From UHGV virus genome UHGV-0098481: a DNA stretch of 48,822 nt; one strand, 5' to 3'. Of the stretch, positions 988 through 40,244 are shown in pieces. The translations under genes were made by a program, and so were the position numbers. Each line of letters opens with the position of its first letter. Position 1 is the stretch's first letter. A model generated the notes under the pieces. The model had not been told where the DNA came from. It did no database searches and worked only from the letters and a program-made list of their open reading frames with translations. The DNA comes from a virus.

Positions 988-3900
988 ATGAAAAAAAATT
1001 CTTTAAATGTGATTTTGGATACTGTTTTCTCGGCGAAAAGCATCAATGGTGAGAAATCTCATTCTTTTATATCGTATAAATTAGTTAAAGCTGTAGAAAA
1101 TTTAAGTGGATATGACTTGGATCTTTTCCTCAATCGTGCGATAAACCATCCTAACTTCCCTAGCAATATGGATTTTTCCTTACGAACAGTTTTTACAATT
1201 GAACAATCTAACACTATTGAATTTAAAAATTTCATTTCAGAATTGGTGTGGTACAAGCATATTTTCATACGATATAAAAAACACCTTAATGATATATTAT
1301 CGGCAAAGGCAAGACTTGAGAAGTTAGTTCTTTTCGCAACAGGTAGTGAATGTATAAAATATTTAGATGAAATAGAAAGCTCTTATGGAGTTAGTTTTTG
1401 GAGCATTGATGCTCGTCTCTTAATAAATAAAGTTTTGCTTAACGAAAGCAATGGGTTATATGTTAAATCAATTCTATCTAAAACCCACTATAAACTTACA
1501 GAGTTTATGTTACAGCAGCTATTATTTAAGCATCAAGTACATAACTTTGATGATTTTTCAAAGAACCTTATAAAAATACTAGATGATATGCGCACCACTC
1601 AAGATAATGGGTATGCTAGAAATTTAGCTGATGGTATTTCATCCTTTTTAATACCTTTAGAGTTTGATAAAAATATAGATCTCAAAAATAGAACCTTAGC
1701 ACCATTTACCAACCTTCCTTTAATAGATCAATTTATCATATTCCAGAGAACTATAAGCGATTTACAACTTCATGGAAATGGTTTAAGAAATAGCGAGTTA
1801 AGCTTAATTGCAGAAATTAACAGCTTTATTAAAAATAACTATCTCAACAATATTTTAGATGGAAGAGAGCGTAATATAGAGAATATTGATGAACACTATA
1901 AAAGTGTTATTCGACGTTATACTATAGGTGATTATACTGGGTGTATTTCAGAAATAAATTCAGTTCGAACGCAGAAGACAATTTTGCCATTAATTGAAAT
2001 ATATGCAAAATCCCATGTGTATCTTGATAAGAAAATTTCAGACTCATGCATATTCAATAAATTAACAAACTGGCTTATAGCAATTATAAAATGCGACAGA
2101 CGCGCTGGAAAATACATCGATGAATTTGAACTTTTAGCATCTAAGATATATTTCAATTCAAATTCATCCTCTCTATTCTTCACATTATATAATTTAATAA
2201 GTGATAACCATAATAAATTAAACATATCTCGTATAAATCTAACCAAAAATGGTTCCTTTGTAACATCCCTTCATTTGAATATAACAATCAAGGAACTATG
2301 GACTGAACTTGGAATAAAAGAGAATGAGATACCAAAATATCGATTATTTAAATTCAAAGACCTAGCAAATCTATCCTTTGATGAAATCAAAAAACACTAC
2401 GAAGTATACAATGATAATGTAATAATTCGCTCTGAATATTTAAAAGATTATACTAACTTTTTATTAGAAAATGAAAAGTATGAATTATGCATCCAATTTA
2501 TAGCTGAAAACTGCATCGGCAACCCCGCAAATTATTACTACTTCCCAATCCGAAAAATAATTGATTTTGTAAAAGACAATATTTTTGACTATGCAAGCGT
2601 GGCCTTATCTATATTGATAGATATTTTTGTCAAAAGCACATCAAACACTTCAAATGAGCTTCTTCTCGAAAGTTATGAGAGTTTAGTAGATATTTCAAAT
2701 ATTAATAGGCCATCTACCCATTATTGCTCTAAGCAATTAACTCCATTAGAGCACTATTTCCTTAAGTTTATCTGTATACCTTCCGTGATGGATTCAGACC
2801 CTTCATTCACAGGCACGGACGACTTGAAGAAGGAAAGAATTGCTATTATAGATCTATTATTAAAAGAACACGATGATGCAGATTTATTGAAAGAGAAAGA
2901 CGAAATTATAGATGAAATATCATTCGAAGAAATAAAAACAAAATATGAGACAGGAAAAATATTTGTTGATATAGAAAATTTAAAACGGGCAAAGCTTGAA
3001 AGATACAGATATTATTTTGATGCACTTAAGGATTCGCTTATTCTCGGACTAGAACCACCTGAAGACTTTGCTTTAATTACAGACGATGGGAATATCACAG
3101 CCATTCCATCTGGCGATACAAACTCTATAATCCATGAACTTCTAAAAGAACTAATCTCCGATTTTGTTAAAAATGAAAATTACGGTCTTGATAAATATTT
3201 GAGTGCAGATATACGGCATGGTGTTTTTGAAAATCAACTCAGATCAAGTGCTGAAAAATCGCAATTAATAACTGATATGGATGGTACTGGACAGTATTCG
3301 AAAAGCAATTTAATTATTGAGACATATCCATTAATTAACCCTATTATAAATAACGAAATAGGGACAGCAATAGCTGATTTCTCTTATCACTTTGACATTG
3401 AATTGGCTAAAGCCAATTCCTGGTTCAATGTCAAGACAATGCTCATAAGTGAATCACAGCAAGGTATGATTGATTTCCTCATTTCTGTTGATATGTTTAA
3501 TTCATTTAAAGCAGCAGTTTCAAATCAAGCATCTTTTGAGAAGTTTTTTGACGCTTGTATTAACTTCATGTGGGAAAGAACGTTCAGATGTTTGAATGAT
3601 ATTAAAGAGCGATTGCATTACGAATTTAAGAGGAATATTTTAGATTTAATTGCCACTCTTAGGCATCAAATTGATATCTATAGAAGACGTAGTTCCATGA
3701 GAGAAATCCAGGAGAAAATTGACCTCTTGGCCGAAAGCATTAATAAAGAAATTGCAACAGTCTGCGATTGGTTAAATGTACTTGAGTATAACGAGGAGAA
3801 AATATATAAAATATCATCCGTGATGCAGGCATGTAGGAAAACTTTTTTTAATATACACCATTGTTCTGATGATGCTATCGTTTTTGATTCAATGTATCAT

Positions 3901-4263
3901 GATGATGAACCAAAATTATCTTATAAAGAAGCCAAGCCTCTAATCACATCAATAATAACAGCGTTAAACAATGCTATGGCCTATGGTAATAAAAAAATCT
4001 TTATCAGTATTAAGCCTGAAGAAAAGTCATGGAAAATAACCATCAGAAATTTGATAATTGAGACAAAGAACAGAACTACCAACCAAATTTTACAAGAGAT
4101 TGATGATAAAATAAAACGAGGGGATAATAGTCTAAATATAAAAGAAGGCGGAGCTGGAATATATAAAATATATGATTTATTATGTTCATTACCGCAAAGA
4201 TTTAATGTGAATCATTGCATCCAAAATAACGAATTCATTTTAAATATTGAGATAAAGAAATGA
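988..4263 (+). CDS. Large soluble sensor protein with C-terminal histidine-kinase-like ATPase motifs (DtcA-like)
   Basis: 1091-aa ORF, strongly AT-rich; C-terminal N-box-like ALNNAMAYGN and glycine-rich G-box-like EGGAGIYKIYD; no obvious TM segment; first gene of a translationally coupled three-gene operon. Confidence 0.6.
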   Translation: MKKNSLNVILDTVFSAKSINGEKSHSFISYKLVKAVENLSGYDLDLFLNRAINHPNFPSNMDFSLRTVFTIEQSNTIEFKNFISELVWYKHIFIRYKKHLNDILSAKARLEKLVLFATGSECIKYLDEIESSYGVSFWSIDARLLINKVLLNESNGLYVKSILSKTHYKLTEFMLQQLLFKHQVHNFDDFSKNLIKILDDMRTTQDNGYARNLADGISSFLIPLEFDKNIDLKNRTLAPFTNLPLIDQFIIFQRTISDLQLHGNGLRNSELSLIAEINSFIKNNYLNNILDGRERNIENIDEHYKSVIRRYTIGDYTGCISEINSVRTQKTILPLIEIYAKSHVYLDKKISDSCIFNKLTNWLIAIIKCDRRAGKYIDEFELLASKIYFNSNSSSLFFTLYNLISDNHNKLNISRINLTKNGSFVTSLHLNITIKELWTELGIKENEIPKYRLFKFKDLANLSFDEIKKHYEVYNDNVIIRSEYLKDYTNFLLENEKYELCIQFIAENCIGNPANYYYFPIRKIIDFVKDNIFDYASVALSILIDIFVKSTSNTSNELLLESYESLVDISNINRPSTHYCSKQLTPLEHYFLKFICIPSVMDSDPSFTGTDDLKKERIAIIDLLLKEHDDADLLKEKDEIIDEISFEEIKTKYETGKIFVDIENLKRAKLERYRYYFDALKDSLILGLEPPEDFALITDDGNITAIPSGDTNSIIHELLKELISDFVKNENYGLDKYLSADIRHGVFENQLRSSAEKSQLITDMDGTGQYSKSNLIIETYPLINPIINNEIGTAIADFSYHFDIELAKANSWFNVKTMLISESQQGMIDFLISVDMFNSFKAAVSNQASFEKFFDACINFMWERTFRCLNDIKERLHYEFKRNILDLIATLRHQIDIYRRRSSMREIQEKIDLLAESINKEIATVCDWLNVLEYNEEKIYKISSVMQACRKTFFNIHHCSDDAIVFDSMYHDDEPKLSYKEAKPLITSIITALNNAMAYGNKKIFISIKPEEKSWKITIRNLIIETKNRTTNQILQEIDDKIKRGDNSLNIKEGGAGIYKIYDLLCSLPQRFNVNHCIQNNEFILNIEIKK

Positions 4264-4709
4264 AAATTCTTCTTGTTGAGGATATTGAATATAAGCGTGA
4301 TAAGGTGATCGGTTTACTAGAGTCTATTTCTGCCGATGTATCAGTCGATGTAGCTAAATCTTATGTTTCGGCAGTAAATTCCGCAACCAGTAAAACTTAT
4401 GATCTTATAATATTAGATATGAGCCTTCCCACTTACGATAAGGGGCCTAATGAAAATGGAGGTCGCTTCAGAGTGTACGGAGGGAAAGATATTATTCGCA
4501 AGTTAATGAGAGGAAAAGAGCATCCAGTAGTTGTGGTTTTAACACAACATACAACTTTTGGTGAAATTGGTGAGCAAAAAAATACTGACACTCTATCACA
4601 AGAGTTGAATGCTTTAATGGGATCAAAATTTATAGGTATTGTAAAATATGACTCAACTAAACCTCAATGGAAAGATGAAATAAAAAAAGTCGTACAGGAT
4701 TTGTTATGA
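4260..4709 (+). CDS. Stand-alone receiver (REC/CheY-like) domain protein (DtcB-like)
   Basis: 149 aa; MKILLVEDIE acidic pocket and LIILDMSLP phospho-acceptor Asp motif; start overlaps upstream stop (ATGA). Confidence 0.75.
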   Translation: MKILLVEDIEYKRDKVIGLLESISADVSVDVAKSYVSAVNSATSKTYDLIILDMSLPTYDKGPNENGGRFRVYGGKDIIRKLMRGKEHPVVVVLTQHTTFGEIGEQKNTDTLSQELNALMGSKFIGIVKYDSTKPQWKDEIKKVVQDLL

Positions 4710-5869
4710 TTAAAATATTAATAGTTGATGACAATAAATCTAGAATTGAAAAGCTAAAATCTAGCTTAACTGAACTCATCACAAAAAACATGATAAGGAT
4801 TGATGAGAAATATACAAGTGACGCCGCAAAAATCGCGCTCAAGTTAAATCAATATGATTATTTAATTCTTGATGTCTTTTTACCTAAAAAAGATAACTAT
4901 AGCCCAGATGAAAGAAATGGATTAGGTCTTTTAAAACAAATAAATTCAGATTCTAAATTTTACTCTCCAAAAAAAATAGTTGGCATAACTGCATATCTGA
5001 ATGATATATCCAGATATGAATCCGAATTCAGAGAATATGCTTCAATTATATTCGAGGCTCGACGTAATGATACTGGATGGCTTGAATCACTCAAAAAAAT
5101 CATTGAAAAGGATGTTGAATCTCAAGTAAGTTATAATCTCAATGAAAAAGATAGTGTTTTAATAACAGTACACGGTATAAGAACCTACGCACCTTGGCAA
5201 AATACCATAGAAGAAAAAATAACCAATATATCAAATAAATTTAACTATATAAAATTCAATTATGGTTTTCTAAATATTCTTTGTTTTTTATTCCCTCCGA
5301 CTAGACATCTATTTGCAAGAAAAATAATCCAAGACATACGAATTACAGTGGAATCAAATAAGAATAAAAGAATTTATATTATTTGTCATAGTTTTGGTAC
5401 CTACCTTGTATATTGTGCCTTAAGTAAACTGACACATACGGATGCAAAAATTGAATGTTTAATTTTTTCTGGTAGCGTATTAAAACGTACTACCTCATTG
5501 AAAACATTAAAGCAACATTGTAATGCAATAATAAATGACTGTGCTGTAAGTGATTATATTTTATTACTATGTAAAATGTTAGTCATTGGCTTGGGCGATG
5601 CAGGCAGAAAAGGGTTTATTGAGCCAAATGATGGTGTTTTCATTAACCGCTATTTTAAAGGAGGACATTCAACTTACTTCGAAGATAAAGATTTCATAGA
5701 AGTGAACTGGCTTCCTTTAATTTTTGACAATAAAAATATCGCGTCACGAGATGAAAGAAAAAATCATATTTTTTCCGATGTCACCAATGCTTTGCAAAAT
5801 ATAATTGAATATTTAAAAATACCAATATGGTTATTTTTTTCTTTTTTATTGATAGCACTGGTATTATAA
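4706..5869 (+). CDS. Receiver domain fused to alpha/beta-hydrolase-like effector with C-terminal hydrophobic anchor (DtcC-like)
   Basis: 387 aa; N-terminal REC motifs (ILIVDDN, LILDVFLP); downstream VHGI and nucleophile-elbow-like ICHSFGT; C-terminal IPIWLFFSFLLIALVL; start overlaps upstream stop. Confidence 0.7.
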   Translation: MIKILIVDDNKSRIEKLKSSLTELITKNMIRIDEKYTSDAAKIALKLNQYDYLILDVFLPKKDNYSPDERNGLGLLKQINSDSKFYSPKKIVGITAYLNDISRYESEFREYASIIFEARRNDTGWLESLKKIIEKDVESQVSYNLNEKDSVLITVHGIRTYAPWQNTIEEKITNISNKFNYIKFNYGFLNILCFLFPPTRHLFARKIIQDIRITVESNKNKRIYIICHSFGTYLVYCALSKLTHTDAKIECLIFSGSVLKRTTSLKTLKQHCNAIINDCAVSDYILLLCKMLVIGLGDAGRKGFIEPNDGVFINRYFKGGHSTYFEDKDFIEVNWLPLIFDNKNIASRDERKNHIFSDVTNALQNIIEYLKIPIWLFFSFLLIALVL

Positions 5870-5879
5870 TATCACTGCA

Positions 5880-5912
5880 CATTAAAAATCATATTGGAGC
5901 TTCCCTCATAAA
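5880..5912. terminator. Inverted-repeat hairpin just after the effector gene stop, possible terminator for convergent genes
   Basis: tattggagctt...aagctccaata inverted repeat with A/T-rich flanks; no clean U-tract on the plus strand. Confidence 0.3.
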
Positions 5913-6348
5913 GCTCCAATATAAAACACCATCATTTCAATAGTACCTGCAGCTAATTAAAACTAGTCAACCGAAAACATTAATCACTTTAAACTTTAGT
6001 ATGCACTTATACTTTCTTAATAATAGAAAAACACTTACAAATAAATTAATCATGTCAATCTCCGTAACTACAACCTCGGAAAGTATGTAAACAGGAATCA
6101 TTACTGAAAAAAACACGATTTCAGCAGAATTCTAGAAATATCCTGTGCTGCTGCCGATACCAACTTTCGTATATACTACCCTTCACGTTCCTTCTCGTTT
6201 TTATAAAACTATTCATTTATAACTATCAATAGGCATCATAACCAATGTAAGTGTAAGTACTGGTGAACGAGTGTCAATGGAGTTAAAAGTATCACTTCAT
6301 CCTGCTAAATATAAGTTATCCTACGTTTTAATATACTAGAACTCAAAA

Positions 6349-7314
6349 TTAGAATGGTTTGTTAATATTAATAGATTTACCATTGATATCTTTTGACACC
6401 TTAAAAAAATCTATACCTTTTATCCACTGACATAACTGTTGTAGTGTTTCCATTGCCTGTTCTAACTCATTTTTTTCAATTCTAACGCCCCCATGATGGC
6501 TACAGGAATTTAATAATTCCTGAGCTAGAGTGATGTCATTCTTCAGCTTATTAGGCAGACCGAGAAAATTAATCACCCTCGACAAACTCCCAAGCATTAA
6601 CTTTTGATAGTCTTCTTCAAATTCCTTTTCAGCCCTAATATTTACTAACATCAAAACATACTCAAGATAACGCCGTGCTGTATTTCCCTTTTCTTGTAAC
6701 GCATCTCTATCATACTCTTTAATATCACTCAATTCCTGTAGTAGAAAATCAAACTTAGCTATTGCCAAGTTAAGATTGATGTTATGCATTAGCAATTCGG
6801 ATGCATGATTGCTAACAGGTACACGATTTGGTGGACGTATCATTATAGCCGTCGTGTAACAATTTATATTTGGTATCTGTATAAATTCCTCACCGGAACG
6901 CGTAACACGTTGAACTTCTACCATATAGTGGCCAAATTTATCAATCTCATATGACCGACAACGAGCAGAATATAATTTATTTAGCTTTTTCCTGTCTTGA
7001 TAATATGATTTTATTAATACAAAAAATGCTCTTTCGTGCTCAATAATTAAAATAGTCTCTATTGAAGCATGGTACAACCATCCGTTATTCCATGTTAATT
7101 CAAGCTGTCTATTTCCATCTTTAAAATCAATTTTAGTTATACGATCCCAACTTCCTCTATCAATAAAATCGACAATATTGCGCCCAAATCCTTGATAGTT
7201 ATTTTTAACAATGTGCAATAGTACTGCCTTTATTTTATCCCAATCATGAATTTCTTTTTCATATTCACCATTTAATATATTCGTTAAATCACTGTGAAAA
7301 TTTTCATATGTCAT
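6349..7314 (-). CDS. Hypothetical island cargo protein (321 aa), function unknown
   Basis: Long AT-rich ORF directly downstream of the island integrase; no motif I can assign. Confidence 0.6.
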   Translation of the reverse strand: MTYENFHSDLTNILNGEYEKEIHDWDKIKAVLLHIVKNNYQGFGRNIVDFIDRGSWDRITKIDFKDGNRQLELTWNNGWLYHASIETILIIEHERAFFVLIKSYYQDRKKLNKLYSARCRSYEIDKFGHYMVEVQRVTRSGEEFIQIPNINCYTTAIMIRPPNRVPVSNHASELLMHNINLNLAIAKFDFLLQELSDIKEYDRDALQEKGNTARRYLEYVLMLVNIRAEKEFEEDYQKLMLGSLSRVINFLGLPNKLKNDITLAQELLNSCSHHGGVRIEKNELEQAMETLQQLCQWIKGIDFFKVSKDINGKSININKPF

Positions 7315-7415
7315 AAGTATCTCTTTTTAGATAAAATTGGATTTCGACAAGTAGACGTTGATAACAACAAGACTGGTTAGATAATTTAATCATTGATGCA
7401 ACGTTTAGCGTTGAA

Positions 7416-8600
7416 TCAATTGACATCATTACCAATTCTTCCAATGCAATCAGCATACCACTGCATCATCTCCCTCCGCCCTTCCAGATACAAAGCATGG
7501 TTGTACGTCCCACGAATCGCATTCTTATCGACATGCGCAAGCTGGGTTTCAATCCATGCCGTATTGAACCCTTCCTCGTGCAAAATCGTACTCATCGTGT
7601 GACGGAAACCATGCCCCGTTACCTTCCCCGTATACCCAATCCGTTTGAATACCTGATTCATACTCGCTTCACTCATCGTCTTGCGGGGATCATTTCGCCC
7701 TGGGAATACCAGTGGATATTGCCCAGATATCACCTTGAGTTGTTGTACGATTTCCAGCGCTTGGGTAGATAGGGGGACAAGGTGAGGCCGTTTCATCTTC
7801 ATACGCTCTGCAGGTATTTCCCACACTGCTTTTTCAAGATCAAACTCACTCCAGAAAGCACCTCGTAGCTCGCCAGTACGAACTCCTGTAAGGATCAGCA
7901 GACGAGCGGCAAGAACAACTAACGGGCTTCCTGTGTAGCCTGCGAGAGCTTTAAAGAAGTCTGGTAACTCCTCAACAGTAAGGAAGGGATAATGCTTCGA
8001 TTCATGCCCTGACATTGCGCTGGTTAGATCCGCTGCAGGATTGTATTCCGCACGACCGGTAACGATGGCGTAACGAAAGACTTCACTGCAACGCTGGCGA
8101 ACCTTCTTGGCCTTCTCTGTCGCGCCACGGCTTTCCATTCGACGTAGCACATTCAGCAGAACCAAAGGCTTGATGTCATTCACCGGCAGTTGGCCAATAT
8201 AAGGGAAAATATCTTTATTGAAGGCTTCGATAATGTCGGAGGCATAACCTTCTGACCACCGGCTCACCTTCGTTCCGTGCCATTCAAGTGCCACAGCCTG
8301 AAACGTATTATTGAGCTGCACATCGCGAACCAACTTTTCTTCTTTCTTGGCAAACGATGGGTCGATACCTTCGGCCAGCTTTTTCTTGGCTTCATCACGC
8401 AGTGCCCTCGCTTGTGCAAGGGACACTGCCGGATAGACACCAAAAGCCATACGTTTCTCTTTTCCATTGAAGCGATATTTCATCCGCCAGTATCGAGAAC
8501 CAGAAGGAACAACTTCAAGATACAAGCCTGCACCATCTGCTAGCTTGTAGGCTTTCTCTCTGGGTTTAGCAGCATCTACCTGTCGAGCATTAAGCTTCAT
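7416..8600 (-). CDS. int: Tyrosine integrase, P4/CP4-type
   Basis: ORF 7416-8639, start taken at MKLNARQVDAAKP with AGGGAG upstream; C-terminal catalytic region with R...HGFRHT...Y pattern; immediately downstream of the tRNA 3' fragment on the same strand. Confidence 0.85.
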   Translation of the reverse strand: MKLNARQVDAAKPREKAYKLADGAGLYLEVVPSGSRYWRMKYRFNGKEKRMAFGVYPAVSLAQARALRDEAKKKLAEGIDPSFAKKEEKLVRDVQLNNTFQAVALEWHGTKVSRWSEGYASDIIEAFNKDIFPYIGQLPVNDIKPLVLLNVLRRMESRGATEKAKKVRQRCSEVFRYAIVTGRAEYNPAADLTSAMSGHESKHYPFLTVEELPDFFKALAGYTGSPLVVLAARLLILTGVRTGELRGAFWSEFDLEKAVWEIPAERMKMKRPHLVPLSTQALEIVQQLKVISGQYPLVFPGRNDPRKTMSEASMNQVFKRIGYTGKVTGHGFRHTMSTILHEEGFNTAWIETQLAHVDKNAIRGTYNHALYLEGRREMMQWYADCIGRIGNDVN

Positions 8601-8764
8601 TGGGGGCATCTCCCTGGACCGAACACAGAATGCCCCCACTTATGCCCCCAACTGCGACTTGATTTCGGTTGAGTCCAGTTGATAACAGGAGATAAGATAC
8701 GGGCCAGAAACCGCAGTATACGGGCTTTTAGTTGATTTCGGTAGACTTGGGAAGAGTTTGAAAT

Positions 8765-9144: not shown

Positions 9145-11850
9145 CTACATTGCCATTAATATAAACATAGCCAATTCGTCATAACGAATTCCGTAGCGTC
9201 CTCCTGCTTTTTTTACAAGAATCATATCTCCTGTTTTATATTGAGAATAAATTTTCTCACCTGTATCAGGATCTGTGCTCTCTTCAGTTATCACCTCTTC
9301 ATCCCATACGTCAGGCCATTCATCGTAACACCAAAAAGCATATTTCTCAGGGTTTAAACCATGCTTTCTAAGAATATCCCCTACGGTTTGAGCGCCAACG
9401 CCAAAATGATACCTGGACGACTCAATTCCTTTGTGATTAATTGAGTCATTAAATTTAAATTTATAGATGACTGACTTTATTTCAATAGCGGCATCACGCT
9501 CTGCATTAAGAATATCATATCTTGTTTTAAGAGTTTCATCTGATGTATTGATTGACCCGGTTCCTGCATAAATAACAGAGCATCTGTTTGATGGCTGTCC
9601 AATAGCTTTAACATTATCATCAACAGGAGCTATTTTATTAGCATCTGCCAACCACCAGTCTGTTCCATCAGCGTGACCGATTCTTACTCTTATCCCACTT
9701 CTAATATTTAAACTTCCAGTATTACTCTGTAAATTACAATCTCCTGACGTTGGTCCAAGCAGTACAGTTTTACCAACACCACATACTACTCTGGCATTTC
9801 CTTTTTGTGATACGAGTCTTGACTCACCTCCTGACTGCTCAGGAAGAGATTTATGGTCTATAAATGCATCGCGGGGGTTAAATACACCGTCTCCAGAATT
9901 ATATCTTCCTCCTGTATAGTTGTTAAATACAGGACCCCAGTCAACGCCATTGCCTTCAGAGCACCCGACCATTCTAAGCACTCGAGTATTCCCTGCTGCA
10001 TATGGTAATGAGCTTGTTGATTGCCGGGAAGCTATCATACGTGCTCCATAACCAATAGCATTACCACCATTTATAGTTACATATGCTTGCTGGCTTTCGA
10101 AATATGTACTGTAAAAGTTCATATTTCCACAGTCATGTAGATGAATAAGAACATCATCCCATCCCTGAATGGTTCCTGCATGTACCTGTACACCGCGAAC
10201 TGGTTCCCCTGAAACCTCCATACACTCTGATGGTCGGCTGAATGGTTGAGACAGGTATTGCGATGTGGCAAGCAGATGTGTGTGGTGATACAGGCTGGTA
10301 ATGTAGCAATCGAAAAATTGCGTTCCCGCCATACCAAAGTTATCTATGTCATTTCGCCGTATAGTAGAACCTACTGTTGCCTCAGAAGCGTTAGACACTC
10401 CAGTAAATACTAACTTATCACCGGATACGGATAATCCTGAATAAGTGAAATTCCTGCCTCCAGATCTTAAAACCCCGGACGTTTCGAAGGTGTGGCTTGC
10501 TGACCATGGGATTTCGATAGTGCTGGACGTTACCGCTGTAATTCGGAATACATCATGGGCGCGGATCGAAACACCCTTGAATCCCTGGAATCTACAGTGA
10601 TAATAGTTTTCATCCTCGCCCTGAGCAGCCAGCGTGTCAGATACAGGAATGTTCGTTTTTAAAAGTGCCGTCTTGCGCCAGTATCCAACCACCTGCAAAT
10701 TGCGGTATTCATTGCCAAAAGACGCACGTGACCAAATACCTACATCCCACTCATCGCCAAGACCGGTATTTGCAATGTCTTTATAACCATCCAGACCATT
10801 GAAATATGGAACAATACGAAAGTTCTCAAGGCGAACACATCCTGTCTCAGGCATCAATATTGCGGCAGAGAATGGTTTAAGCGTGGCTCTTGTAGTCCCA
10901 TTAGCATCACCGTTAGTAAAATCCAATAAATCATATGATGACGCAGGTGCCGTTGTTGTATACGGGTCTTCGGAAGATGGATTAGAAACCACACCACCAC
11001 TAACATCCATATTAGAAACACAATCTACAGTATATTTTTTATTTCCTACCCCGTACATCAGGAATGTGGTCCCTGTGGTAATATCAGGAGCAAATGTTGC
11101 AGTATATCCTGAGACCCATTTGCCCACACCAAGACAAATTATCCCACCACCAGAAACAGGTGTTAACGTATCCGTTATTACATACGCATTATCAGTACCA
11201 TAAATAACCTTTCCTGTGTTAAGGGCAGCTTGCCACGCGGCCCAGTCTATTGACTGAGATAATGAGTCAACAAAAGGATATAAGGATTTTGCTTCAGAAA
11301 TTGAAGAAAACCACTCAGATAATGGATGATATTTCCCATCCCCAATTGCTCCAAATTGTTTTACATTTAAGAAAAGAGCATTGTTTTCATGCTGAGTTAT
11401 AGTTACAGCCCCGGTAAATGGCTGCCTTACCCCAATTAATGCATCACCTTTTGAATCATCATTAATGTATGCTCCTGATTGAGATAACTGCTCTTTGAAG
11501 TCTGGGCCAAACTGATCTGGATCGTATTTTAATACATTTGGAAAATAGAACTGCTTCGCACCATACGCATCATAAACAGCCATAGAATGGCCTTGCACAG
11601 TTACGAATTTGGCAATCTGTCCGTTATATACCGGATAACCAGCAGCGTTAATGATGATTGGTTGAGAAACAGGAACGTGAGAACCGTCTTCGTTCTCTAC
11701 ATAAACCTGAATCCGGTTTTCTGGATTTACCGGGTCAGCGTCAATTTTACCGATATAAATTTTTCCATTGGCAACCGCTTTAAAAGAACGCGCCATAGTG
11801 AAGAGTTGCGAAGGCATACTCACTACAACATTGGCTGTAATGTCTGTCAT
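9145..11850 (-). CDS. Tailspike protein: P22-like N-terminal head-binding domain, divergent receptor-binding body, C-terminal chaperone-like domain
   Basis: N-terminus [11 protein letters not shown]...[12 protein letters not shown]...VQGHSMA...LKYDPDQ closely matches the P22 gp9 head-binding domain; remainder unlike P22; C-terminal ...[11 protein letters not shown]... resembles auto-cleaving intramolecular chaperone domains. Confidence 0.85.
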
Positions 11851-11918
11851 TTAATTTGCTCCAGATACAAGAAATCGCCGCAGCATTGCCACAGTGATGC
11901 ATTATTAATCAAATAAAG

Positions 11919-11933
11919 AGACCGCTGTGGTCT
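11919..11933. promoter_or_regulatory. Operator-like inverted repeat AGACC-N5-GGTCT between divergent mnt and tailspike starts
   Basis: Dyad in the 146-bp intergenic region; form is similar to the P22 Mnt operator as remembered. Confidence 0.35.
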
Positions 11934-11996
11934 TATTGAGGATGCAACCAGCAGATAATAAGATGCCGATCCACTCACAAAAGCGAGGCATCAAGA

Positions 11997-12248
11997 ATGG
12001 GAAGAGATGACCCGCAATTTAATCTGCGGCTACCTTACGAATTAAAGGAAAAACTAAAACAGCGAGCCAAATCCAATGGCCGCTATCTTAATTCAGAATT
12101 AGTTCAGATAGTGACTGATGCTGTATCAAAGCCATCCAAAATTTCAGGCTATCGAGACGATGCGGAACGCATCGCTGATGAGCAGTCTGAACTTGTTAAG
12201 AAGATGGTGTTTGATACGCTGAAGGATTTGTACAAAAAACCCACCTGA
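11997..12248 (+). CDS. mnt: Mnt repressor (Arc/MetJ-type ribbon-helix-helix)
   Basis: 83 aa, near-identical to P22 Mnt as remembered (…RLPYELKEKLKQRAKSNGR…DAERIADEQSELVKKMVFDTLKDLYKK). Confidence 0.85.
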   Translation: MGRDDPQFNLRLPYELKEKLKQRAKSNGRYLNSELVQIVTDAVSKPSKISGYRDDAERIADEQSELVKKMVFDTLKDLYKKPT

Positions 12249-12262
12249 CGGTGGGTTTTATT
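12240..12262. terminator. Bidirectional rho-independent terminator between convergent mnt and the putative toxin gene
   Basis: cccacc-tgac-ggtggg hairpin flanked by A-run upstream and T-run downstream. Confidence 0.65.
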
Positions 12263-12680
12263 AGTGCTTGTATAGGTTGAACTCTCTATCAAGCCATATA
12301 ACAAAAAATGTCGATCCAAGACGATAACCAACCATGGCTTTCAAATCATCAAATCTAAAAGCCAAGAAATGATCTACGTCTTCCGTTATATGACTGGGGA
12401 TACCTGCTTTAATTGCACCCCTTGCAATCTTCTCAAATCCAAGCTTATGCCTACCTTGCTGCTTAATATCTGCCCATGTTAGTTGACTTAATCTGTATAA
12501 TTTATCAGCTAAGCCAGCTTTCTCATCTTTTTGGCATTTCGTTATGCAGTGAGAGCTTTGGATGTAACAGAATGAAAATTTCGGTTTCTTTTGATCTGAA
12601 TTCCCCCCTGACTGCGGCCCTAACTTTAACTTACCTGTAGATTCAGCAGGGGGGATAATCCTTTTAGATTTTCTTGCCAT
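12261..12680 (-). CDS. Hypothetical protein, candidate toxin partner of the Panacea-domain protein
   Basis: ~139 aa from MARKSKRIIPP...; starts 4 nt after the upstream ORF stop; basic N-terminus; no family assigned. Confidence 0.5.
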   Translation of the reverse strand: MARKSKRIIPPAESTGKLKLGPQSGGNSDQKKPKFSFCYIQSSHCITKCQKDEKAGLADKLYRLSQLTWADIKQQGRHKLGFEKIARGAIKAGIPSHITEDVDHFLAFRFDDLKAMVGYRLGSTFFVIWLDREFNLYKH

Positions 12681-12684
12681 CTCG

Positions 12685-13134
12685 TTAGTTAATCCGAGTT
12701 GCAAAGTACTCTGCCATCTCCTTAGAACTAATTTCAGAACCACCAACACCCTCAATATAGTTTGATCTCCATGGTGACTCTTCGTGTGTCATGTTCCTCA
12801 GTTTCCAGGCAGAAAATTGCCCAAAAACATCCCAGACTTCTTCTAATAGCTCTAACTGTTCTTCGCTGAATTTTTCAGCATCAAAAGACTCTGGAGAAGG
12901 GATAGCACCATTACCATATTGTTTATAACGGTGATAAAGCTCAGGGACAACAGGGCCATGCATCCAAGCTTCCATCTTATTCTGAAAAAGAGGCTCGCCA
13001 AGCAACGCCAATGAAAAACCCTGAGCATAGTAAACAAGCTTTTGTAATTTTAAATTAGAGATTGCGTCACCGCTATCCTCGTCACACCGCGACAGGAAGT
13101 AGTCGGCGACATCAAAACAAGTAAGCATGAACAC
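12685..13134 (-). CDS. DUF4065/Panacea-domain protein (SocA-like antitoxin family)
   Basis: 149 aa; LKLQKLVYYAQGFSLALLGEPLF...EAWMHGPVVPELYHRYKQYG pattern typical of the phage-associated Panacea domain. Confidence 0.7.
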   Translation of the reverse strand: MFMLTCFDVADYFLSRCDEDSGDAISNLKLQKLVYYAQGFSLALLGEPLFQNKMEAWMHGPVVPELYHRYKQYGNGAIPSPESFDAEKFSEEQLELLEEVWDVFGQFSAWKLRNMTHEESPWRSNYIEGVGGSEISSKEMAEYFATRIN

Positions 13135-13502
13135 ACCTCCATCTTGATAGCCACAGCTAAGTATCCAACTATGTCAAATGTCATTTAATACTATAACAAA
13201 GCTATCAGCAATCCTTCTGAGGCTAACTTACAACCACTTTAGCGACATGTTTAAACCATTACGTTTCACATTTACTGCATTTTCGCCGAAGTTACCTATA
13301 AGGTAATGTCACATTTCCTGCAAGTTTCATGCAATGTTGAAAAGTGAGCTATTCACTTTTCTATGACACCAAACACCAAAAATAGCACTTTTTGCTAAAT
13401 CATTCGTCCAAGTTGTGGATGGTTTGTCGTTGACACGTTTTCACACACCACTCCACCAATAAAGTATCATCTGGTATCCTGCTCAAAACTAAGGAGGTTG
13501 GT

Positions 13503-13832
13503 GTGCTTGAATGGTTTCTGTTGGCTGCATTAGTCGTTTCTGGTTTGGTGTATGAGTATCGAATGCACTCTCTAACAAAAAAAATAGGAATTCTAGAAAA
13601 CGAATATTGTGCTCTCAAATCCTCACTGGAACGTGAGCAAGGGGACTTAAAAATCTCTCTGTCTAGCATTGAGCGTTCTATAGAGAGCTTAGAGGATAAG
13701 GTTGATCGTATAAAGAATGAGGATATTCATGATATTAAGGACGACATATCCTTCTTAAAATCTTGGTTGAAAAATGTTGGGAAAATTGCCACATCAACAC
13801 GAGATAAGCTCAATCCATCCATGGATGACTAA
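13503..13832 (+). CDS. Small membrane-anchored coiled-coil protein (moron in the sieA-equivalent slot)
   Basis: GTG start 5 nt after AAGGAGG; N-terminal TM helix (WFLLAALVVSGLVY) then heptad-rich region; convergent with gp16. Confidence 0.6.
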   Translation: MLEWFLLAALVVSGLVYEYRMHSLTKKIGILENEYCALKSSLEREQGDLKISLSSIERSIESLEDKVDRIKNEDIHDIKDDISFLKSWLKNVGKIATSTRDKLNPSMDD

Positions 13833-15968
13833 TTACTCCTGTGCCATTCCGCTTAGTGATGCCACAATTCCAGCCCTTGCTAAACGCTGGAACTCTTCGT
13901 TTCCTAGTGCCTCGCGTATTGCTTTTACGGCGGCCTTATTTGCCATAAATCTGCGTTCCGCCGCCGCTAATGCACCATCACTTGCCCCAACCTTAACGGC
14001 CTTTGTTGCCTCTTGAACAGCCTTTTCAATAGCGTAACGACCACTTCTAGTTGCGGATAATTTCGCTATCGCTCCTTTTGCCATTGCATCAATTGCTCCA
14101 CCTGCAGCGCCACCCGCTATTGCTCCAATAACGCCTCCTCCAGAGAACCCTGCGATAGTGCCAGTAGTTCTAAAAGCGCCAGACAATGCGCTCTCTAAAA
14201 CTGGATGAAGGCCATTCTCAAGAGTGCTAATGGCTGGCATAGATCGCCCTGTCTGTTCAACATATCGAAGTGGCTTTGTTGCTGCTCGTGCAAGTTCTCC
14301 GTATGAACTTGTAATCCTGCCAAGTTCTGGAGAATATCGACTAATTGCCTTCACGTTTTGTGGGGTAAGAATAGTCGCGATATGCTTAATTCCAGCCTCT
14401 TCAGACTTACCTCCGCGTACCCCTTGCGACATTGCATCTTGTAATATTGATGCAATTGCTGGCGCGCGTTCCGACTCAGGTAGGGCGCTTATTATTTTAT
14501 GGAACTGACCTGTTCCACTTTTTGCTGAACCCTGTAACGCCTTAGATCCATTAGTTACCAACTGATCAGTTGCAAGGTCTCTACCAAACGCTGCTTCAGC
14601 CTGTTCTTGTGCTGTAAATCTTGCCTTTGACAGATCATTAGCTTTTTGCCAGTCATCAAGAAAACCACCATTTTGAGCCATTATGCGCATATCTTCCGTT
14701 GCTGCATCACGAAGCTCAGCCATGCGCCTTGCCGTATTTGCCTCACCAGACCTTATATACTTCTGCTCTGCGTCAGCAAGTTTACTTCGCCATGCCTTCA
14801 TGGCATCAAACGTGATTCCTTTTTTACCAGTTTTAGCATAAGCAGATGCGAATTGTTTCATCTCAGGAGTTAGCGGCATGCCAGCCAAAATATCACCCTG
14901 AATTGTAGCGTTCAGGTTTGACATTCTGGCCTTTGCGTCAGGCATCGTGGAGCGAACGCTATCCCATGCGGCCTTTTCTGAATTTTTCATTTTATCAATA
15001 CTTGCCAAAACCCTTTGTTTTATGGCTGCACTTTTTTCTGATGCAGTTCCTGCTTCAGCCCCAAACTCATCCAATGCTGAGTTAAATTTCGACTCTATTT
15101 CACTGAATGCTTTGGTGTGTGCATCCTGTGTAATTCCGGGCTTTGACGCCAGAATCCCCTCCGCCTGAGCAAGACCACGACTACCTGATCTCATGCCAGG
15201 AGTTAATGCGTTGATATCTATTCCAGCAGTATCTGCTGCTTTTGCTATTTCTTCTGACACATTAGCTGACTGTCTGGCGATAATCTCTCTTCCTGTACCA
15301 GACTTTGCCATTTTCGAAACATCAGCAGCGGAATTTATTGCCCCGCCACCAAGAACTTGAGGTGATTTAGAGGTTAAGATCCTTCCAGCCCCAGAAAGTA
15401 TCCCCTGAGCACCAATATTGATACCACCGTTAATGGCAGCATTTTGTGCAAAGTCGCCCTCCTGATTTGCAGCATCAGCAAGAGAACCTGCAATCATGTT
15501 TCCTGCGGAACCGATATCTCCAGCGAGCTTTGCTGGCGCTCCAGCAGCTTTTGCCGCTGTGCCAATTGGCAGGAGATACCCACCAATTGTTTCACCGGCT
15601 TGCGCGTAAGGGTCTGTCGGTCGATCGACAGGACGATAGACATCATCCAATACTTTTGGCCCACCAAGCCCCTGACTGATTGCATTAATCAGACTTGCGC
15701 CACCCTGCAATACGTCAAATGGTATGTTTACCAGACCACGACCAGCCTGTTCTGCAATTTGCCCTGCACTTTGACCACCAGTGAGCCAATCGCCAGCTTG
15801 TTGCATCAATGATGGTTCTTCCCGTGTTGGTGCATTATTGGCCTGATTAACTGTTTGTTGCTGAACAGCCTGACCAGCAAAATACTCATCAATGGCGGTG
15901 CCAATATCTTCGGTGCTCGTACCATCAGGAAAGGTAAATGTCTTACCGTTTGCAGTTACTTTCATCAT
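13833..15968 (-). CDS. Ejection protein gp16-like
   Basis: Position and size in P22-type gene order after gp20; Ala/Gly-rich. Confidence 0.75.
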
Positions 15969-17371
15969 TCCACCGTAAATTGAATGCCTGATTTTGAGGT
16001 ATATGATCCAACCTGATTCCGTGGTTCTCCTGAAGGTGTCGAATCTTGTGCTGGCGCTGCGTCAGTATTCATTGACATATACCGCTTAACGGCACTCCCC
16101 AATGATTCACCTTTTTTAACATCCAACCCCAATATCTGACCGCCATTACGCGATTGTCCAGGGTTGCCATTCGCGCTCATCCACTCAGCTTTAAACTCAT
16201 TAAACTGCGCGTTTCGTCGCTCAAGGTTTGCCATTGCATCAAGCCATCTTGCGACCGTCTCAGGGTTATCCATGTCAGTTGGCGCACCCTGTCGAACGAT
16301 CTCAACGTCTTTATCCGTTGCTGGGCCGGGAGGTAGGAATTTAAGAACCTGACTGTTAACAAGGGCATTTTGGCGAATGCGCAAATCACGCAATGTCGTA
16401 TCGCTTCCGGTAAGTTTTGCGAACATGTTCTGTGCGTTACCGAACAAACCGGTCGTTGGTTTTTCTGCTCTGAACTGTTGAGCAAGCGCACTCATGGAAT
16501 TGGCTGAGTTTGATGATGCTGTGGCATTGTTTACAGCCGTCTCGATGCCTTTTTCCATGTTTACTGACAGCTTAGGTGCTTCGCTAATCAACTGCTGAGC
16601 CTTTTCCTGCGCTTGCTGCATCTTAAACCCGAACTCTTGCTGATCCAGAGCCAAGCGTTGTGCTGCGATATTGTGCCCAGTCATTGCTGACTGATAGGAA
16701 AGGTTTTGCCCTCTCGCCTGAAGTGCTTCACCAGCCTGATTGCTGCGGATTGTCTCTACCAGTCTGCCTCGGTCAATCTCACGACCAGCCATCTTGTCCT
16801 GAACATTGAAGTAGTCAATCGGACCGAGAGCAGCCATCCCAAGGTGATCAACAAACTCACCAAATCCTGAAGGGTTCTGCTGATACATCTGAGCAACGCT
16901 GTTAGGGTCAACACCGACGCGAGTCAGTTCCTTGGCGTTGTTTTGCAGCCATGATTGCATTGCTTCTGGAGACGATGACGCAAGGCGTGCGCCAGCCGCT
17001 AAGGTGCCGATAGAATTGCGCTGGTCTTCATCAATGAATCCCATGCCTTTACGAACGGATTCAATCTGGTCTGGATATTGAGTAGCCAGCTGACGCAAAG
17101 CACCGCGATCACCAGACGCATAAGCATTAGCGTATGCCTGCTGAAATTCTTTCTGCCGCTGAGCCTGCTTTTCCTGCTGAAACACCCCCGCAATACCTGA
17201 AAGGCCTTGCAAAGCAGTCAGCCCAACATTGTTAGCGCCTGAACGCTCAATATCATTGTTCTGTCTGATAAGCTGAAGCGTATTGCCGATGTCATTTACG
17301 CTCGGAGCGTTTGAGTTGACACCACCGATACCAGCCAACAATCCGCCATTTGTTCCTTGCCAAGTAGCCAT
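15965..17371 (-). CDS. Ejection protein gp20-like
   Basis: 468 aa, synteny with P22 gene 20. Confidence 0.75.
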
Positions 17372-17380
17372 GATTACCTC

Positions 17381-18073
17381 TTAAAACAACGATCCAAGCA
17401 GGCCAAGTCCGCCGCCAATTGCCGCACCTAATCCAGTGCCAAGTCCGGGAACAATAGAGCCAAGAGCAGCGCCAGTCATAGCCCCTGAAGCTCCGCCGCT
17501 AATTGCTGTCTGAAGACCTGATGGTTTATTGGCATTAGCAGCGGCAAGAGCCGCACTTTGCTGCGAAATCTGACTCATGTTGTTGGCATATGTCTGCCCG
17601 GCGTTTGCCTGACCTTGCAGTGCGCCAAGACCAATATTTGCCAGATTCTGGTAGTTGTTCATCTGACCAGACAGCCACTGCTGACCAAGCGTTGGTGCGA
17701 TTGTTGCTAACTGATTACCGGTTGCAGTGGAACCCAATCCACCTGTTGCTTCCGCTGCAGCCAGACTCTGATAGCGAGCCTGACCAGCAAGATCTTTGTA
17801 CTGCTGAGAGTTGTAATACTGGTTAAGTGCCTGACCTTGCCCCTGAAGAGAGGAAAGATTCTGCAATTGTGATACGTACTGCTGAGCGAGTGGCGTGAAC
17901 GGAGCAAGGTTTTTCATGATCGTCTGCCACTGCTGATTCTGCAGGTCTGCGGCATACTTCTGAGCTTCTGCTGCATACTTTGCGCTTTTATCGGAGCCAC
18001 CTTTCCCGCCTTTTTCAGGGCAATAAGGTTCCTCGCCGCGCAGTTTTCTGCCCAGCTTAAATGCATATAACAT
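17381..18073 (-). CDS. Ejection protein gp7-like
   Basis: 230 aa, Gln/Ala/Gly-rich, synteny with P22 gene 7. Confidence 0.75.
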   Translation of the reverse strand: MLYAFKLGRKLRGEEPYCPEKGGKGGSDKSAKYAAEAQKYAADLQNQQWQTIMKNLAPFTPLAQQYVSQLQNLSSLQGQGQALNQYYNSQQYKDLAGQARYQSLAAAEATGGLGSTATGNQLATIAPTLGQQWLSGQMNNYQNLANIGLGALQGQANAGQTYANNMSQISQQSAALAAANANKPSGLQTAISGGASGAMTGAALGSIVPGLGTGLGAAIGGGLGLLGSLF

Positions 18074-28692: not shown

Positions 28693-29130
28693 TCATCGAA
28701 GGCATTGCGTCCTGATGTATTCCTGCAGGTAGTTAACCTGCGCGGTTATCCTGTCGATTCCACTTCTGAGACGGTAATAATTGAGTTCAGCATCTGCTGT
28801 AAGTCTTGGGCTTTCTCCATCGCCCATGCTGCTGGCTCCGGTCGTTGACTTTGCACAGGTGGCGGCGACTTGCAGGCGCTTACGACCAGCAGAAACATCA
28901 GCACGGAGACTTTCGATAGTCGCGTTAGCATCAGCAAGCTCCTTTGTGTATCTGGCGTCAAGTTCTGCTACATCACGTTGACGCTTCTGCATGTCAGCGA
29001 TTGTGGATGTGGCCTTATCGCGCTGCTCTTTGTAGGCGATTGCATTATCACGGTAATGATTAACAGCCCATGACAGGCAGACGATGATGCAGATAACCAG
29101 AGCGGAGATAATCGCGGTGACTCTGCTCAT
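28693..29130 (-). CDS. Rz: Spanin, inner-membrane subunit Rz
   Basis: Near-identical to lambda Rz as remembered; N-terminal TM. Confidence 0.9.
28746..28931 (-). CDS. Rz1: Spanin, outer-membrane lipoprotein Rz1 (embedded in Rz, +1 frame)
   Basis: Embedded ORF with lipoprotein signal ending VVSAC and Pro-rich mature part; start chosen at MLTRLSKV. Confidence 0.7.
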
Positions 29131-29603
29131 ACCTCAATCTCTCTGACCGTTCCGCCTGCTTCTTTGAATTTTGCAATCAGGTTGTCAGCCTTATGCTCGA
29201 ACTGACCATAACCAGCGCCCGGCAGTGAAGCCCAGATATTGCTGCAACGGTCGATTGCCTGACGGATATCACCGCGATCAATCATCGGCAAAGCGCCACG
29301 CTCCTTAATCTGCTGCAATGCAACAGCATCCTGGCTTTTAGGAGAGAAGTCTTTCAGGCCAAGCTGCTTACGGTAGGCGTCCCACCAACGGGAAAGAAGC
29401 TGGTAACGTCCGGCAGCTGTTGATTTGAGTTTGGGGTTTAGCGTGACAAGTTTGCGAGGGTGATCTGAGTAATCAGTGAATAGCTCTCCGCCAACAATGA
29501 CGTCATAACCATGATTTCTGGTTTTCTGACGTCCGTTATCAGTTCCCTCTGACCACGCCAGCATATCGAGGAACGCCTTACGTTGATTATTGATTTCCAC
29601 CAT
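29127..29603 (-). CDS. R: Endolysin R (lytic transglycosylase)
   Basis: 158 aa, matches lambda R as remembered ([26 protein letters not shown]...). Confidence 0.9.
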
Positions 29604-29910
29604 CTTCTACTCCGGCTTTTTTAGCAGCGAAGCGTTTGATAAGCGAACCAATCGAGTCAGTACCGATGTAGCCAATGAACACGCTCGTTATATAAGCGAG
29701 ATTGCTACTTAGTCCGGCGAAGTCGAGAAGGTCACGAATGAACCAGGCGATAATGGCGCACATCGTTGCGTCGATTACTGTTTTTGTAAACGCACCGCCA
29801 TTATATCTGCCGCGAAGGTACGCCATTGCAAACGCAAGGATTGCCCCGATGCCTTGTTCCTTTGCCGCGAGAATGGCGGCTAACAGGTCATGTTTTTCTG
29901 GCATCTTCAT
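29587..29910 (-). CDS. S: Holin S (dual-start S107/S105)
   Basis: 107 aa, matches lambda S ([20 protein letters not shown]...). Confidence 0.9.
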
Positions 29911-37899: not shown

Positions 37900-38914
<1,015 letters not shown>

Positions 38915-39147: not shown

Positions 39148-39339
39148 GCGCTATGAGATCAGGCATCCTCGTTACTTTGTCATGTGTGACAGCCTGGTAT
39201 GCACTCTGCGAGCTTTGATGTGGTTTACCACTTTAATAGTCACCGTATCACTAAACTGATTAGCTTTACTCATACTCTTGTGGATTCGCTATTTCTGATG
39301 TCAATGCAAAAAAATACTAAGGAAACAAAAAGGATACTT

Positions 39340-39606
39340 ATGTCAGATAACACTATTAAAATCATACCTCAGCACATGACCGCCACATCAGTTCTTATTA
39401 CGCCTGATCGTGCTGAAACAATCATTACTTTTTACCGCCATGAATTTGAGCATCACATGCAGTCTGATGAGCAAGGAAATAATAGCTTCCAAGTAAAAGT
39501 TGAGTTGACCCCTAACATGTCAGTCTCAATGAGCCCGGATCAAGCTGTTGCATTAGTAAAATCATTACAGGTAGCTCTCAGGGATAATGGGCTATGGAAA
39601 GACTGA
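39340..39606 (+). CDS. Hypothetical protein (88 aa) in the rexAB-equivalent position
   Basis: ORF 39199-39606, start chosen at MSDNTIKII with AAGGA upstream. Confidence 0.45.
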   Translation: MSDNTIKIIPQHMTATSVLITPDRAETIITFYRHEFEHHMQSDEQGNNSFQVKVELTPNMSVSMSPDQAVALVKSLQVALRDNGLWKD

Positions 39607-40244
39607 AGCCAGTTTCTTCAGTTCAACCTACCTCAGGAACAACATCATCAGTTCTTCCAAGTATTATAGTTAGTGCAACCCTAGCAGCGACAACCGTTTC
39701 TCCTTATGGGGATCCATCTCAGTACCAAAGTATTGGTATTGATGCTAAGGTATCAAATAGAGTTTCATACGCCATGGACGAAACGGGTTTGCGCCCAAGT
39801 AAGGAAGATGTAGCGATGAAGAGTGATACCCTGGAGGTAAGCGTGAGCGGAATGTCCAGAGAAGAACTTGACGCAAAGCTTTCACAAAACAAATCAGAGG
39901 TAGAGTCTATTGCTGCGGAAATGCGTCGCGAATCAGCTGACTTTAAAACCTATTATACTCAGCAATTTTCTTCTATTGAGAGAGGTATTGCTGAAATTAA
40001 AGGTGAAATCGGCGGTTTGAAAACGGGACTTACAACGACTCAGTGGGCGATGGCCGTTGGCTTGACTTTAGTTACTGTGATTCTGTCTGGCGTGATGTTA
40101 GCCTCAAGTTGGATTATCTCCGGCAATGACAAGTCACCATCAGTAACCAGCCCGGCTCCAATTATAATACAGGTACCGACACAGCAACCATTAACGAGCG
40201 CTCCAACTAACCAATCGTCATCACAACAAGCTCCTAAGCAATAA
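39594..40244 (+). CDS. Hypothetical coiled-coil protein with C-terminal TM helix
   Basis: 216 aa; central heptad-like region, TM segment WAMAVGLTLVTVILSGVMLASSWII, Ser/Pro/Gln-rich tail; start uncertain. Confidence 0.55.
   Translation: MERLKPVSSVQPTSGTTSSVLPSIIVSATLAATTVSPYGDPSQYQSIGIDAKVSNRVSYAMDETGLRPSKEDVAMKSDTLEVSVSGMSREELDAKLSQNKSEVESIAAEMRRESADFKTYYTQQFSSIERGIAEIKGEIGGLKTGLTTTQWAMAVGLTLVTVILSGVMLASSWIISGNDKSPSVTSPAPIIIQVPTQQPLTSAPTNQSSSQQAPKQ

Follow-up and report, generated by a model that had tools for sequence, protein, structure and literature searches.

The gene that abuts gene 16 in a P22-like prophage is hkcB, and hkcB is a cassette allele of sieA, located like it between the tailspike gene and gene 16. 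Within identical flanks, its place is taken elsewhere by sieA or one of about 11 other envelope-protein genes. The analysis covered one stretch of viral DNA of 48,822 nucleotides (UHGV virus genome UHGV-0098481), which is referred to below as the window and is a P22-like prophage. The gene already had a name, hkcB of phage HK620, and has been known since 2001 as hypothetical. The identity of the 34-bp block at its start with that of sieA, the nucleotide-exact swap of hkcB and sieA, the repertoire of genes in the slot and the extended -10 motif in the block are new here.

hkcB and its setting in the prophage

The features discussed are collected in Table 1. Reading of the ORF places the hkcB GTG at the earliest possible start codon past an in-frame stop. 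The TAA stop directly adjoins the reverse-strand stop of the gene 16 homologue (13832/13833), and the two genes are convergent with no intergenic DNA between them. The preliminary description had drawn a 109-residue plus-strand ORF with a GTG start and an AAGGAGG site, its stop abutting that of the gp16 gene on the opposite strand, and all of this was borne out. The gap between hkcB and gene 16 is also zero in HK620, 611R6, epsilon34, CUS-3, SEN22, UTI89, four metagenomic loci and Klebsiella, and in 23 of the 24 IMG/VR loci with a readable flank; it is 3-4 nt for the distant homologues (Serratia, metagenomic). hkcB is oriented against the late operon, which lies on the minus strand, and in the same direction as mnt and the prophage repressor (plus).

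Table 1. Positions of hkcB, its subregions and the surrounding genes in the window
Feature	Position	Strand	Remarks
hkcB CDS	13503..13832	+	109 aa; GTG start; TAA stop (13830-13832)
Shine-Dalgarno AAGGAGG	13491..13497	+	5 nt 5' of the hkcB GTG
Conserved 34-bp expression block TGGTATCCTGCTCAAAACTAAGGAGGTTGGTGTG (-31 to +3)	13472..13505	+	common to P22 sieA and at least ~13 unrelated slot-gene families
Putative extended -10 TGgTATCCT (TGGTATCCT)	13472..13480	+	read from sequence; fits TGnTAnnnT
N-terminal hydrophobic anchor, residues 2-17 (LEWFLLAALVVSGLVY)	13506..13553	+	no K/R before; R20, K26 and K27 after
Acidic heptad-rich helix, residues 22-82, presumed coiled coil with two register shifts	13566..13748	+	AlphaFold2 and heptad analysis
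Most conserved segment, residues 83-106 (SFLKSWLKNVGKIATSTRDKLNPS), candidate interaction site	13749..13820	+	alignment; dN/dS 0.11-0.15
Exchange unit: hkcB and 3' ~80% of gene 16	13506..15575	.	window vs L016 alignment
Gene 16 homologue (ejection/DNA transfer protein)	13833..15968	-	711 aa; phrog_770, E 1e-222
Ejection genes 7, 20, 16	13833-18073	-	late operon
Head-binding tailspike	9145..11850		901 aa
mnt homologue ('ant moron')	11997..12248	+	
Downstream partner of the antitoxin	12261..12680	-	likely start 12680; phrog_8366; weak PADLOC NsnC match
Panacea/SocA-domain antitoxin	12685..13134	-	Pfam E 8e-25
Holin, endolysin, Rz (lysis cassette)	28693-29910		
Prophage repressor	38201..38914	+	
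Integrase	right end of window		

hkcB is a real conserved coding gene and no chance ORF. Its overall dN/dS of 0.15-0.37 indicates purifying selection. The last 29 codons (SWLKNVGxIATSTRDKLNPSMD) are near-invariant, with a dN/dS of 0.11-0.15 at a dS of 0.5-1.7, and this low ratio despite high dS means that the protein sequence itself is constrained, not the DNA alone. Homologues at 68%, 50% and lower identity retain the length of HkcB, its N-terminal hydrophobic helix and its position.

The window protein is 98.2% identical to HkcB of HK620 (NP_112088.1; tblastn), 99% identical to an ORF of 611R6 and 50% identical to epsilon34 gene 14, CUS-3 hkcB and an ORF of SEN22. It matches phrog_5962 ('unknown function') over residues 2-109 with E 1.9e-61. 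The epsilon34 genome paper places hkcB in the 'ant moron' and gives its function as unknown (PMC2629481), and no phenotype for hkcB was found in the literature on hkcB, the ant moron, or HK620 and exclusion. Pfam, NCBIfam and PADLOC contain no HkcB family and returned sub-threshold coiled-coil noise only. Among the PADLOC-DB 2.0 defence models, the one match was to DpdH (E 0.002, 16 bits), which is short and falls on the TM/coil segment.

The HkcB family is very small. It comprises 26 clusters among 5.8 billion proteins (E. coli, Salmonella, Klebsiella), and a profile search of 1.84 billion representatives returned these clusters and their fragments plus just two new distant homologues, one from Serratia marcescens and one from a metagenome. 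Long coiled-coil proteins near E 1e-4 ranked below the distant homologues in this search and were treated as spurious. HkcB type 1 occurs in ~82 of 5426 complete E. coli genomes (~1.5%), and neither the block nor HkcB turned up in the species-representative genomes searched. Three subtypes, namely type 1, type 1b (68% identical) and type 2 (50% identical), share length, anchor and heptads. The neighbours of hkcB vary in every phage that carries it, which marks it as a stand-alone gene. HkcB as a decoy was considered and rejected; BLASTP against all window ORFs gave nothing better than E 0.03. Metagenomic chimeras also occur (P0022/P0023; L141 252-587), in which the last 45 HkcB residues follow, in frame, a different, non-hydrophobic N-terminal stretch of 60 residues. 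The chimeric genes still abut gene 16, and they suggest recombination within hkcB or a modular C-terminal motif.

The moron region of the window (9145-12248) has mnt and lacks arc and ant, and the C-terminus of the tailspike is an endosialidase-chaperone (Peptidase_S74) domain. The gene pair at 12261-13134 looks like a PanA-type toxin-antitoxin system inside the ant moron, and the same Panacea pair precedes sieA in E. coli CP062826. The mnt homologue and the Panacea pair (11997..13134) are not conserved partners of hkcB. Left of the tailspike gene lies a second integrase (7416..8639, minus strand). A three-gene plus-strand cluster within 988-8639 encodes a 1091-residue protein that matches neither Pfam nor PHROG, followed by two proteins with receiver-like domains (4260..5869). 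The 988-8639 region may be a separate integrated element or a defence island. Two genes directly downstream of the repressor on the same strand (39199-40244, plus) encode proteins of 135 and 216 residues (phrog_5820, unknown function). The position just downstream of a prophage repressor is where prophage-expressed genes of the lambda rexAB kind sit.

Exchange of hkcB and sieA behind a 34-bp start block

In P22, sieA is convergent with gene 16 and ends 22 nt from the gene 16 stop. The exchange of the two genes was read from an E. coli prophage (CP062826, L016) that matches the window at 99.4% identity between 12231 and the GTG at 13505. Past this GTG, L016 has a type A sieA, and its gene 16 body is of the P22 type. 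No similarity between the two sequences was found over 13506-15393, a weak 113-bp match (70%) lies at 15394-15506, and L016 rejoins the window from 15576 (95% identical) in the conserved 5' part of gene 16. These points of divergence and rejoining define the exchanged unit as the slot gene plus ~80% of gene 16.

The 34-bp block is 97% identical to the DNA before P22 sieA, which has the same GTG start, and is the sole similarity between window positions 12257-15574 and P22. Similarity between the window and HK620 begins exactly at the first nucleotide of the block (13472) and extends to 15821. An exact-pattern scan of IMG/VR found at least 121 blocks in viral contigs, with at least 117 complete ORFs starting from the block GTG. 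The block is invariant in at least 89 distinct contexts; this holds for the T at -31 too, a base outside the search pattern, and conservation drops sharply upstream of -31 and beyond +3. These contexts comprise at least 29 different upstream flanks and at least 27 different coding starts.

The ORFs behind the block fall into at least ~13 unrelated families, and 12 of 13, SieA among them, are membrane or secreted proteins as judged by inspection of their N-termini. HkcB-1 and HkcB-2, two HkcB types, are counted as one family, and SieA-A is the characterised exclusion protein. The others are families of 129 and 99 residues with signal peptides, a 68-residue signal-peptide protein, multi-TM proteins of 62, 75 and 116 residues, a 149-residue protein with an N-in anchor, a 103-106-residue family with an N-terminal TM helix and a helical body, a second 109-residue family (K109) with an N-terminal TM helix and a coiled coil, and a 140-residue family (J140) that is apparently soluble. 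K109 (MLEIVVLALGISCCVLYAGLAALKKQVKELDR...; loci among L018-L137) has an MLE start, an N-terminal anchor, KK after the anchor and a coiled coil, and thus an HkcB-like architecture. It occupies the same slot, but beside a P22-type gp16. Homology of K109 to HkcB was rejected because BLASTP gave no match, and convergent evolution is a possible source of their likeness.

The putative extended -10 motif TGGTATCCT lies at -31..-23 relative to the start and is invariant in the block. Transcription is predicted to start at ~13486-13488, which would give a leader of ~15 nt. Diverged hkcB-1b loci keep the motif as TGGTAGAGT. It is lost in three loci with co-directional genes upstream of hkcB (CUS-3, UTI89 and Klebsiella), and the ribosome site is kept there. 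A consensus scan for promoters and terminators called no plus-strand promoter or terminator near hkcB. The scan passed over the extended -10 because the motif is without a -35; it was found by alignment instead. Rfam over 11800-14100 gave nothing relevant. We infer that the block is a compact -35-independent promoter with a short leader and a ribosome site, forming a self-contained module.

P22 sieA with just 85 bp of upstream DNA suffices for exclusion (PMC10883804). The promoter annotated for P22 sieA at -61..-31 (L006 4862-4892) lies in P22/HK620-specific sequence. The sequence of this annotated promoter is missing from the window, L016 and APEC O1, and because these other sieA and hkcB prophages do without it, the invariant TGGTATCCT is the better candidate for the working sieA promoter.

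Predicted architecture of HkcB and its pairing with gp16

AlphaFold2 models HkcB residues 2-103 as one continuous helix with a mean pLDDT of 86. The best hydrophobic stretch comprises residues 2-16 and the uncharged run residues 4-17; the anchor is short, with 14-16 apolar residues. Heptad a and d positions are hydrophobic in 6-7 of 8 cases across much of residues 19-100, in three registers. The single modelled helix, the uncharged run and the a/d hydrophobicity confirm the N-terminal hydrophobic helix and heptad-rich body that had been described from the ORF. Foldseek of the model against the PDB gave 0 matches, a lone helix being uninformative as a query. The W..NVG core of the conserved C-terminal segment is kept in the Serratia and metagenomic homologues, and IA..T.DK is kept only in the Serratia one.

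Every subtype examined has no K/R before the anchor and two to three K/R within 15 residues after it. Types 1b and 2 show the same charge pattern, as do the homologues from Klebsiella, Serratia and metagenomes (two distant ones by inspection). The positive-inside rule is established knowledge and was applied by hand to HkcB. The charge pattern around the anchor, read by this rule, favours an N-out/C-in topology and suggests that the coiled coil faces the cytoplasm rather than the periplasm.

The gp16 of the window is similar to P22 gp16 over the first ~200 residues only; the rest is of the HK620 type and unrelated to P22. All HkcB loci with a readable downstream flank, the Serratia and metagenomic ones included, abut or lie within 3-4 nt of a gene for a gp16 with a ...GIVASLSG(M/I)AQE C-terminus. 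Among the loci listed, SieA-A is always 22 nt from a gp16 ending ...VRPLLxNEATRQ. Two further slot alleles also occur with the gp16 C-terminal type associated with HkcB. This type is shared by Bas106, Huey, Dewey, Louie and phiSG1, and tblastn matched HkcB in none of the five. The tailspike gene directly follows gene 16, with no moron, in the three inspected (Bas106, Huey and phiSG1). hkcB is therefore dispensable for gp16 function and virion infectivity, since phages with the same gp16 type lack it.

Co-variation of HkcB and gp16 types was rejected as independent evidence of an interaction because the two are exchanged as one block. Linkage alone explains their co-occurrence, given one exchange unit with no DNA between the genes. 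The gp20 type does not co-vary with the HkcB type. The deposited gp16 proteins of HK620 (L001) and CUS-3 (L004) are 77% identical by BLASTP, and their differences cluster in the C-terminal third, where one patch of ~40 residues is at ~33% identity; their identity is given as 26% in PMC10883804. The gene 20 homologue of the window (15965-17371, minus strand) has a clear Inj_translocase N-terminal domain. Its product is only ~31-33% identical overall to gp20 of HK620, CUS-3, epsilon34, SEN22 and P22, and it appears to be a distinct gp20 type.

Candidate functions and comparison with known systems

In the best explanation, a tentative one, HkcB would be an exclusion protein of the inner membrane, encoded by a single gene, expressed from the prophage and without homology to SieA. 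hkcB is a stand-alone accessory ('moron') gene of P22-like prophages in the sieA cassette slot and would, like sieA, be weakly expressed from the prophage, by way of the extended -10 block. The protein would insert into the inner membrane, most likely N-out/C-in, and oligomerise through its heptads. When P22-like phages deliver DNA into the cell, its invariant C-terminal motif would interfere with the last step, the one at the inner membrane, which would involve the gp16/gp20 conduit or a host factor needed by the conduit. HkcB may thus be a counterpart of SieA for the HK620-type gp16 lineage; the ejection proteins of this lineage escape SieA in part.

The preliminary description had placed sieA in this slot of P22, as is the case, and had called the protein not recognisably SieA, which BLASTP against P22 SieA (type A) upheld with no alignment at E <= 100. 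Its reading of slot and architecture is supported, the slot by the same GTG and 34-bp block as in sieA, by the swap between identical flanks and by the series of unrelated envelope proteins found there; the lysogenic-conversion or exclusion role that it had called plausible stays at that strength. No similarity of HkcB to any exclusion or defence family was found in Pfam, NCBIfam and PADLOC, by Foldseek against the PDB or by BLASTP against SieA. Sharing the slot with sieA is guilt by association, SieA being the sole characterised allele and J140 apparently soluble. A cytoplasm-facing coil, if that topology is correct, would have no obvious route to blocking a periplasmic conduit, and this counts against exclusion. 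With the HK620 ejection proteins, phages are partly resistant to SieA types A and B, and the mutations that escape SieA are located in the C-terminal regions of gp16 and gp20 (PMC10883804). CUS-3 has a type 2 hkcB, and its gp16 shares 77% identity with that of HK620, yet SieA excludes this phage fully (PMC10883804), so the idea that HkcB is matched to a SieA-resistant gp16 is not clean.

A more specific proposal is unlikely when taken as a whole. In it, the 34-bp block would be a plug-in site at which at least ~13 envelope-protein families are swapped together with the gene 16 body, and HkcB would be a mechanistically new exclusion protein, an inner-membrane-tethered cytoplasmic coil whose C-terminal motif blocks the gp16 exit of the DNA conduit, or a needed host factor, in the HK620-type lineage that partly escapes SieA.

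It is somewhat unlikely, though the foremost alternative, that HkcB is an envelope protein with another job and no action on P22-like DNA entry, such as abortive infection or defence against unrelated phages, or lysogenic conversion of envelope physiology. The C-terminal motif could, for example, bind a host membrane or divisome protein. The evidence for expression and membrane location serves this role as well as it serves exclusion, and by the charge rule the conserved motif would be cytoplasmic, at a distance from the periplasmic conduit. The slot proteins are very diverse, some of them secreted, and need not all exclude, and the surrounding moron carries a toxin-antitoxin system and other defence-like cargo. 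Against another job, PADLOC gave no match beyond the short, weak one to DpdH (E 0.002), the sole characterised slot allele is an entry blocker (PMC10883804), and all homologues with a readable flank lie beside gene 16 in P22-like prophages.

hkcB points against the late operon and is missing from relatives that share its gp16 type, which makes it improbable that HkcB serves the phage's own lytic cycle with gp16, as a late re-injection block or as a modulator of gp16 or lysis timing, and not the lysogen. The zero-gap adjacency to one gp16 C-terminal type, conserved across dS > 1, would fit such a role, as would the up-regulation of sieA itself on induction (PMC10883804). The architecture resembles Rz-type i-spanins (weak phrog_739 match, E 0.07), but the match is not significant, N-in spanins have the opposite charge pattern, and genes for a holin, an endolysin and Rz are already present in the prophage.

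A mainly RNA-level role, with transcription from the block running antisense into gene 16 and colliding with late transcription towards the tailspike gene, and the protein secondary, has in its favour the gap-free convergent genes with no terminator-like site between them (consensus scan) and the thought that the ant moron influences read-through into the tailspike gene (PMC2629481), yet is highly improbable in view of the strong protein-level purifying selection at saturated synonymous change, the conserved strong ribosome site and the unrelated coding sequences that persist downstream of one and the same block. The small remaining probability falls to readings of another kind or to a gene without function.

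For short-tailed P22-like phages, no exclusion protein other than SieA is known, and just a third of the sequenced P22-like phages carry sieA (PMC10883804). hkcB itself is a modest gain, as the gene is long known and rare. The wider finding, more interesting than hkcB alone, is a conserved 34-bp start block before a swappable set of envelope proteins. Together with hkcB, the dozen or so slot proteins are ready-made candidates for exclusion, each of which comes with a gp16 type in nature, and as a panel they would serve to probe the inner-membrane step of DNA delivery.

As a candidate exclusion protein, HkcB was compared with known systems of similar form. Rz-type i-spanins are built like it, with a TM helix at the N-terminus and then a coiled coil of ~100 residues. 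HkcB as an Rz-like spanin was rejected: the matches to phrog_739 (E 0.07) and NCBIfam P2_Rz1 (E 0.052) fall far short of the cut-off, and hkcB lies outside the lysis cassette (28693-29910), has no Rz1 partner and coexists with the prophage Rz at 28693..29130. Spanins have a positively charged cytoplasmic N-terminus, whereas that of HkcB is without positive charge.

T4 Imm and Sp are single-gene membrane exclusion proteins that block DNA entry. HK97 gp15, Tuc2009 Sie2009 and TP-J34 Ltp are further proteins of this kind to which HkcB can be likened; they are small, stand-alone and membrane-anchored, are encoded by phages or prophages and target the injection conduit (PMC10883804). These five proteins act on long-tailed phages or T4 and have no detectable homology to HkcB, and, unlike HkcB, none has been described as a long coiled coil tethered to the membrane.

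HkcB of HK620, epsilon34 gene 14 and CUS-3 hkcB (PHROG 5962) belong to the same family as the window protein and share its length, its position abutting gene 16 and its upstream block (in CUS-3 the ribosome site is kept and the -10 motif lost). They show no substantial difference from it; the left flank of hkcB differs, with the Panacea toxin-antitoxin pair in the window and hkcC in HK620.

Exclusion is demonstrated for SieA and not for HkcB. P22 SieA has 164 residues, several predicted TM helices and a cytoplasmic FxRYPxEAxxFNK motif (PMC10883804), whereas HkcB has 109 residues, one anchor (residues 2-17) and a long coiled coil, and is not multi-pass. The FxRYPxEAxxFNK motif is absent from HkcB, and the two share no Pfam or PHROG family. 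SieA ends 22 nt from the gene 16 stop beside a P22-type gp16, and HkcB 0 nt from it beside an HK620-type gp16. The two are alike in slot, block and GTG start; each is a single gene oriented against the late operon, and SieA is, and HkcB is predicted to be, a membrane protein.
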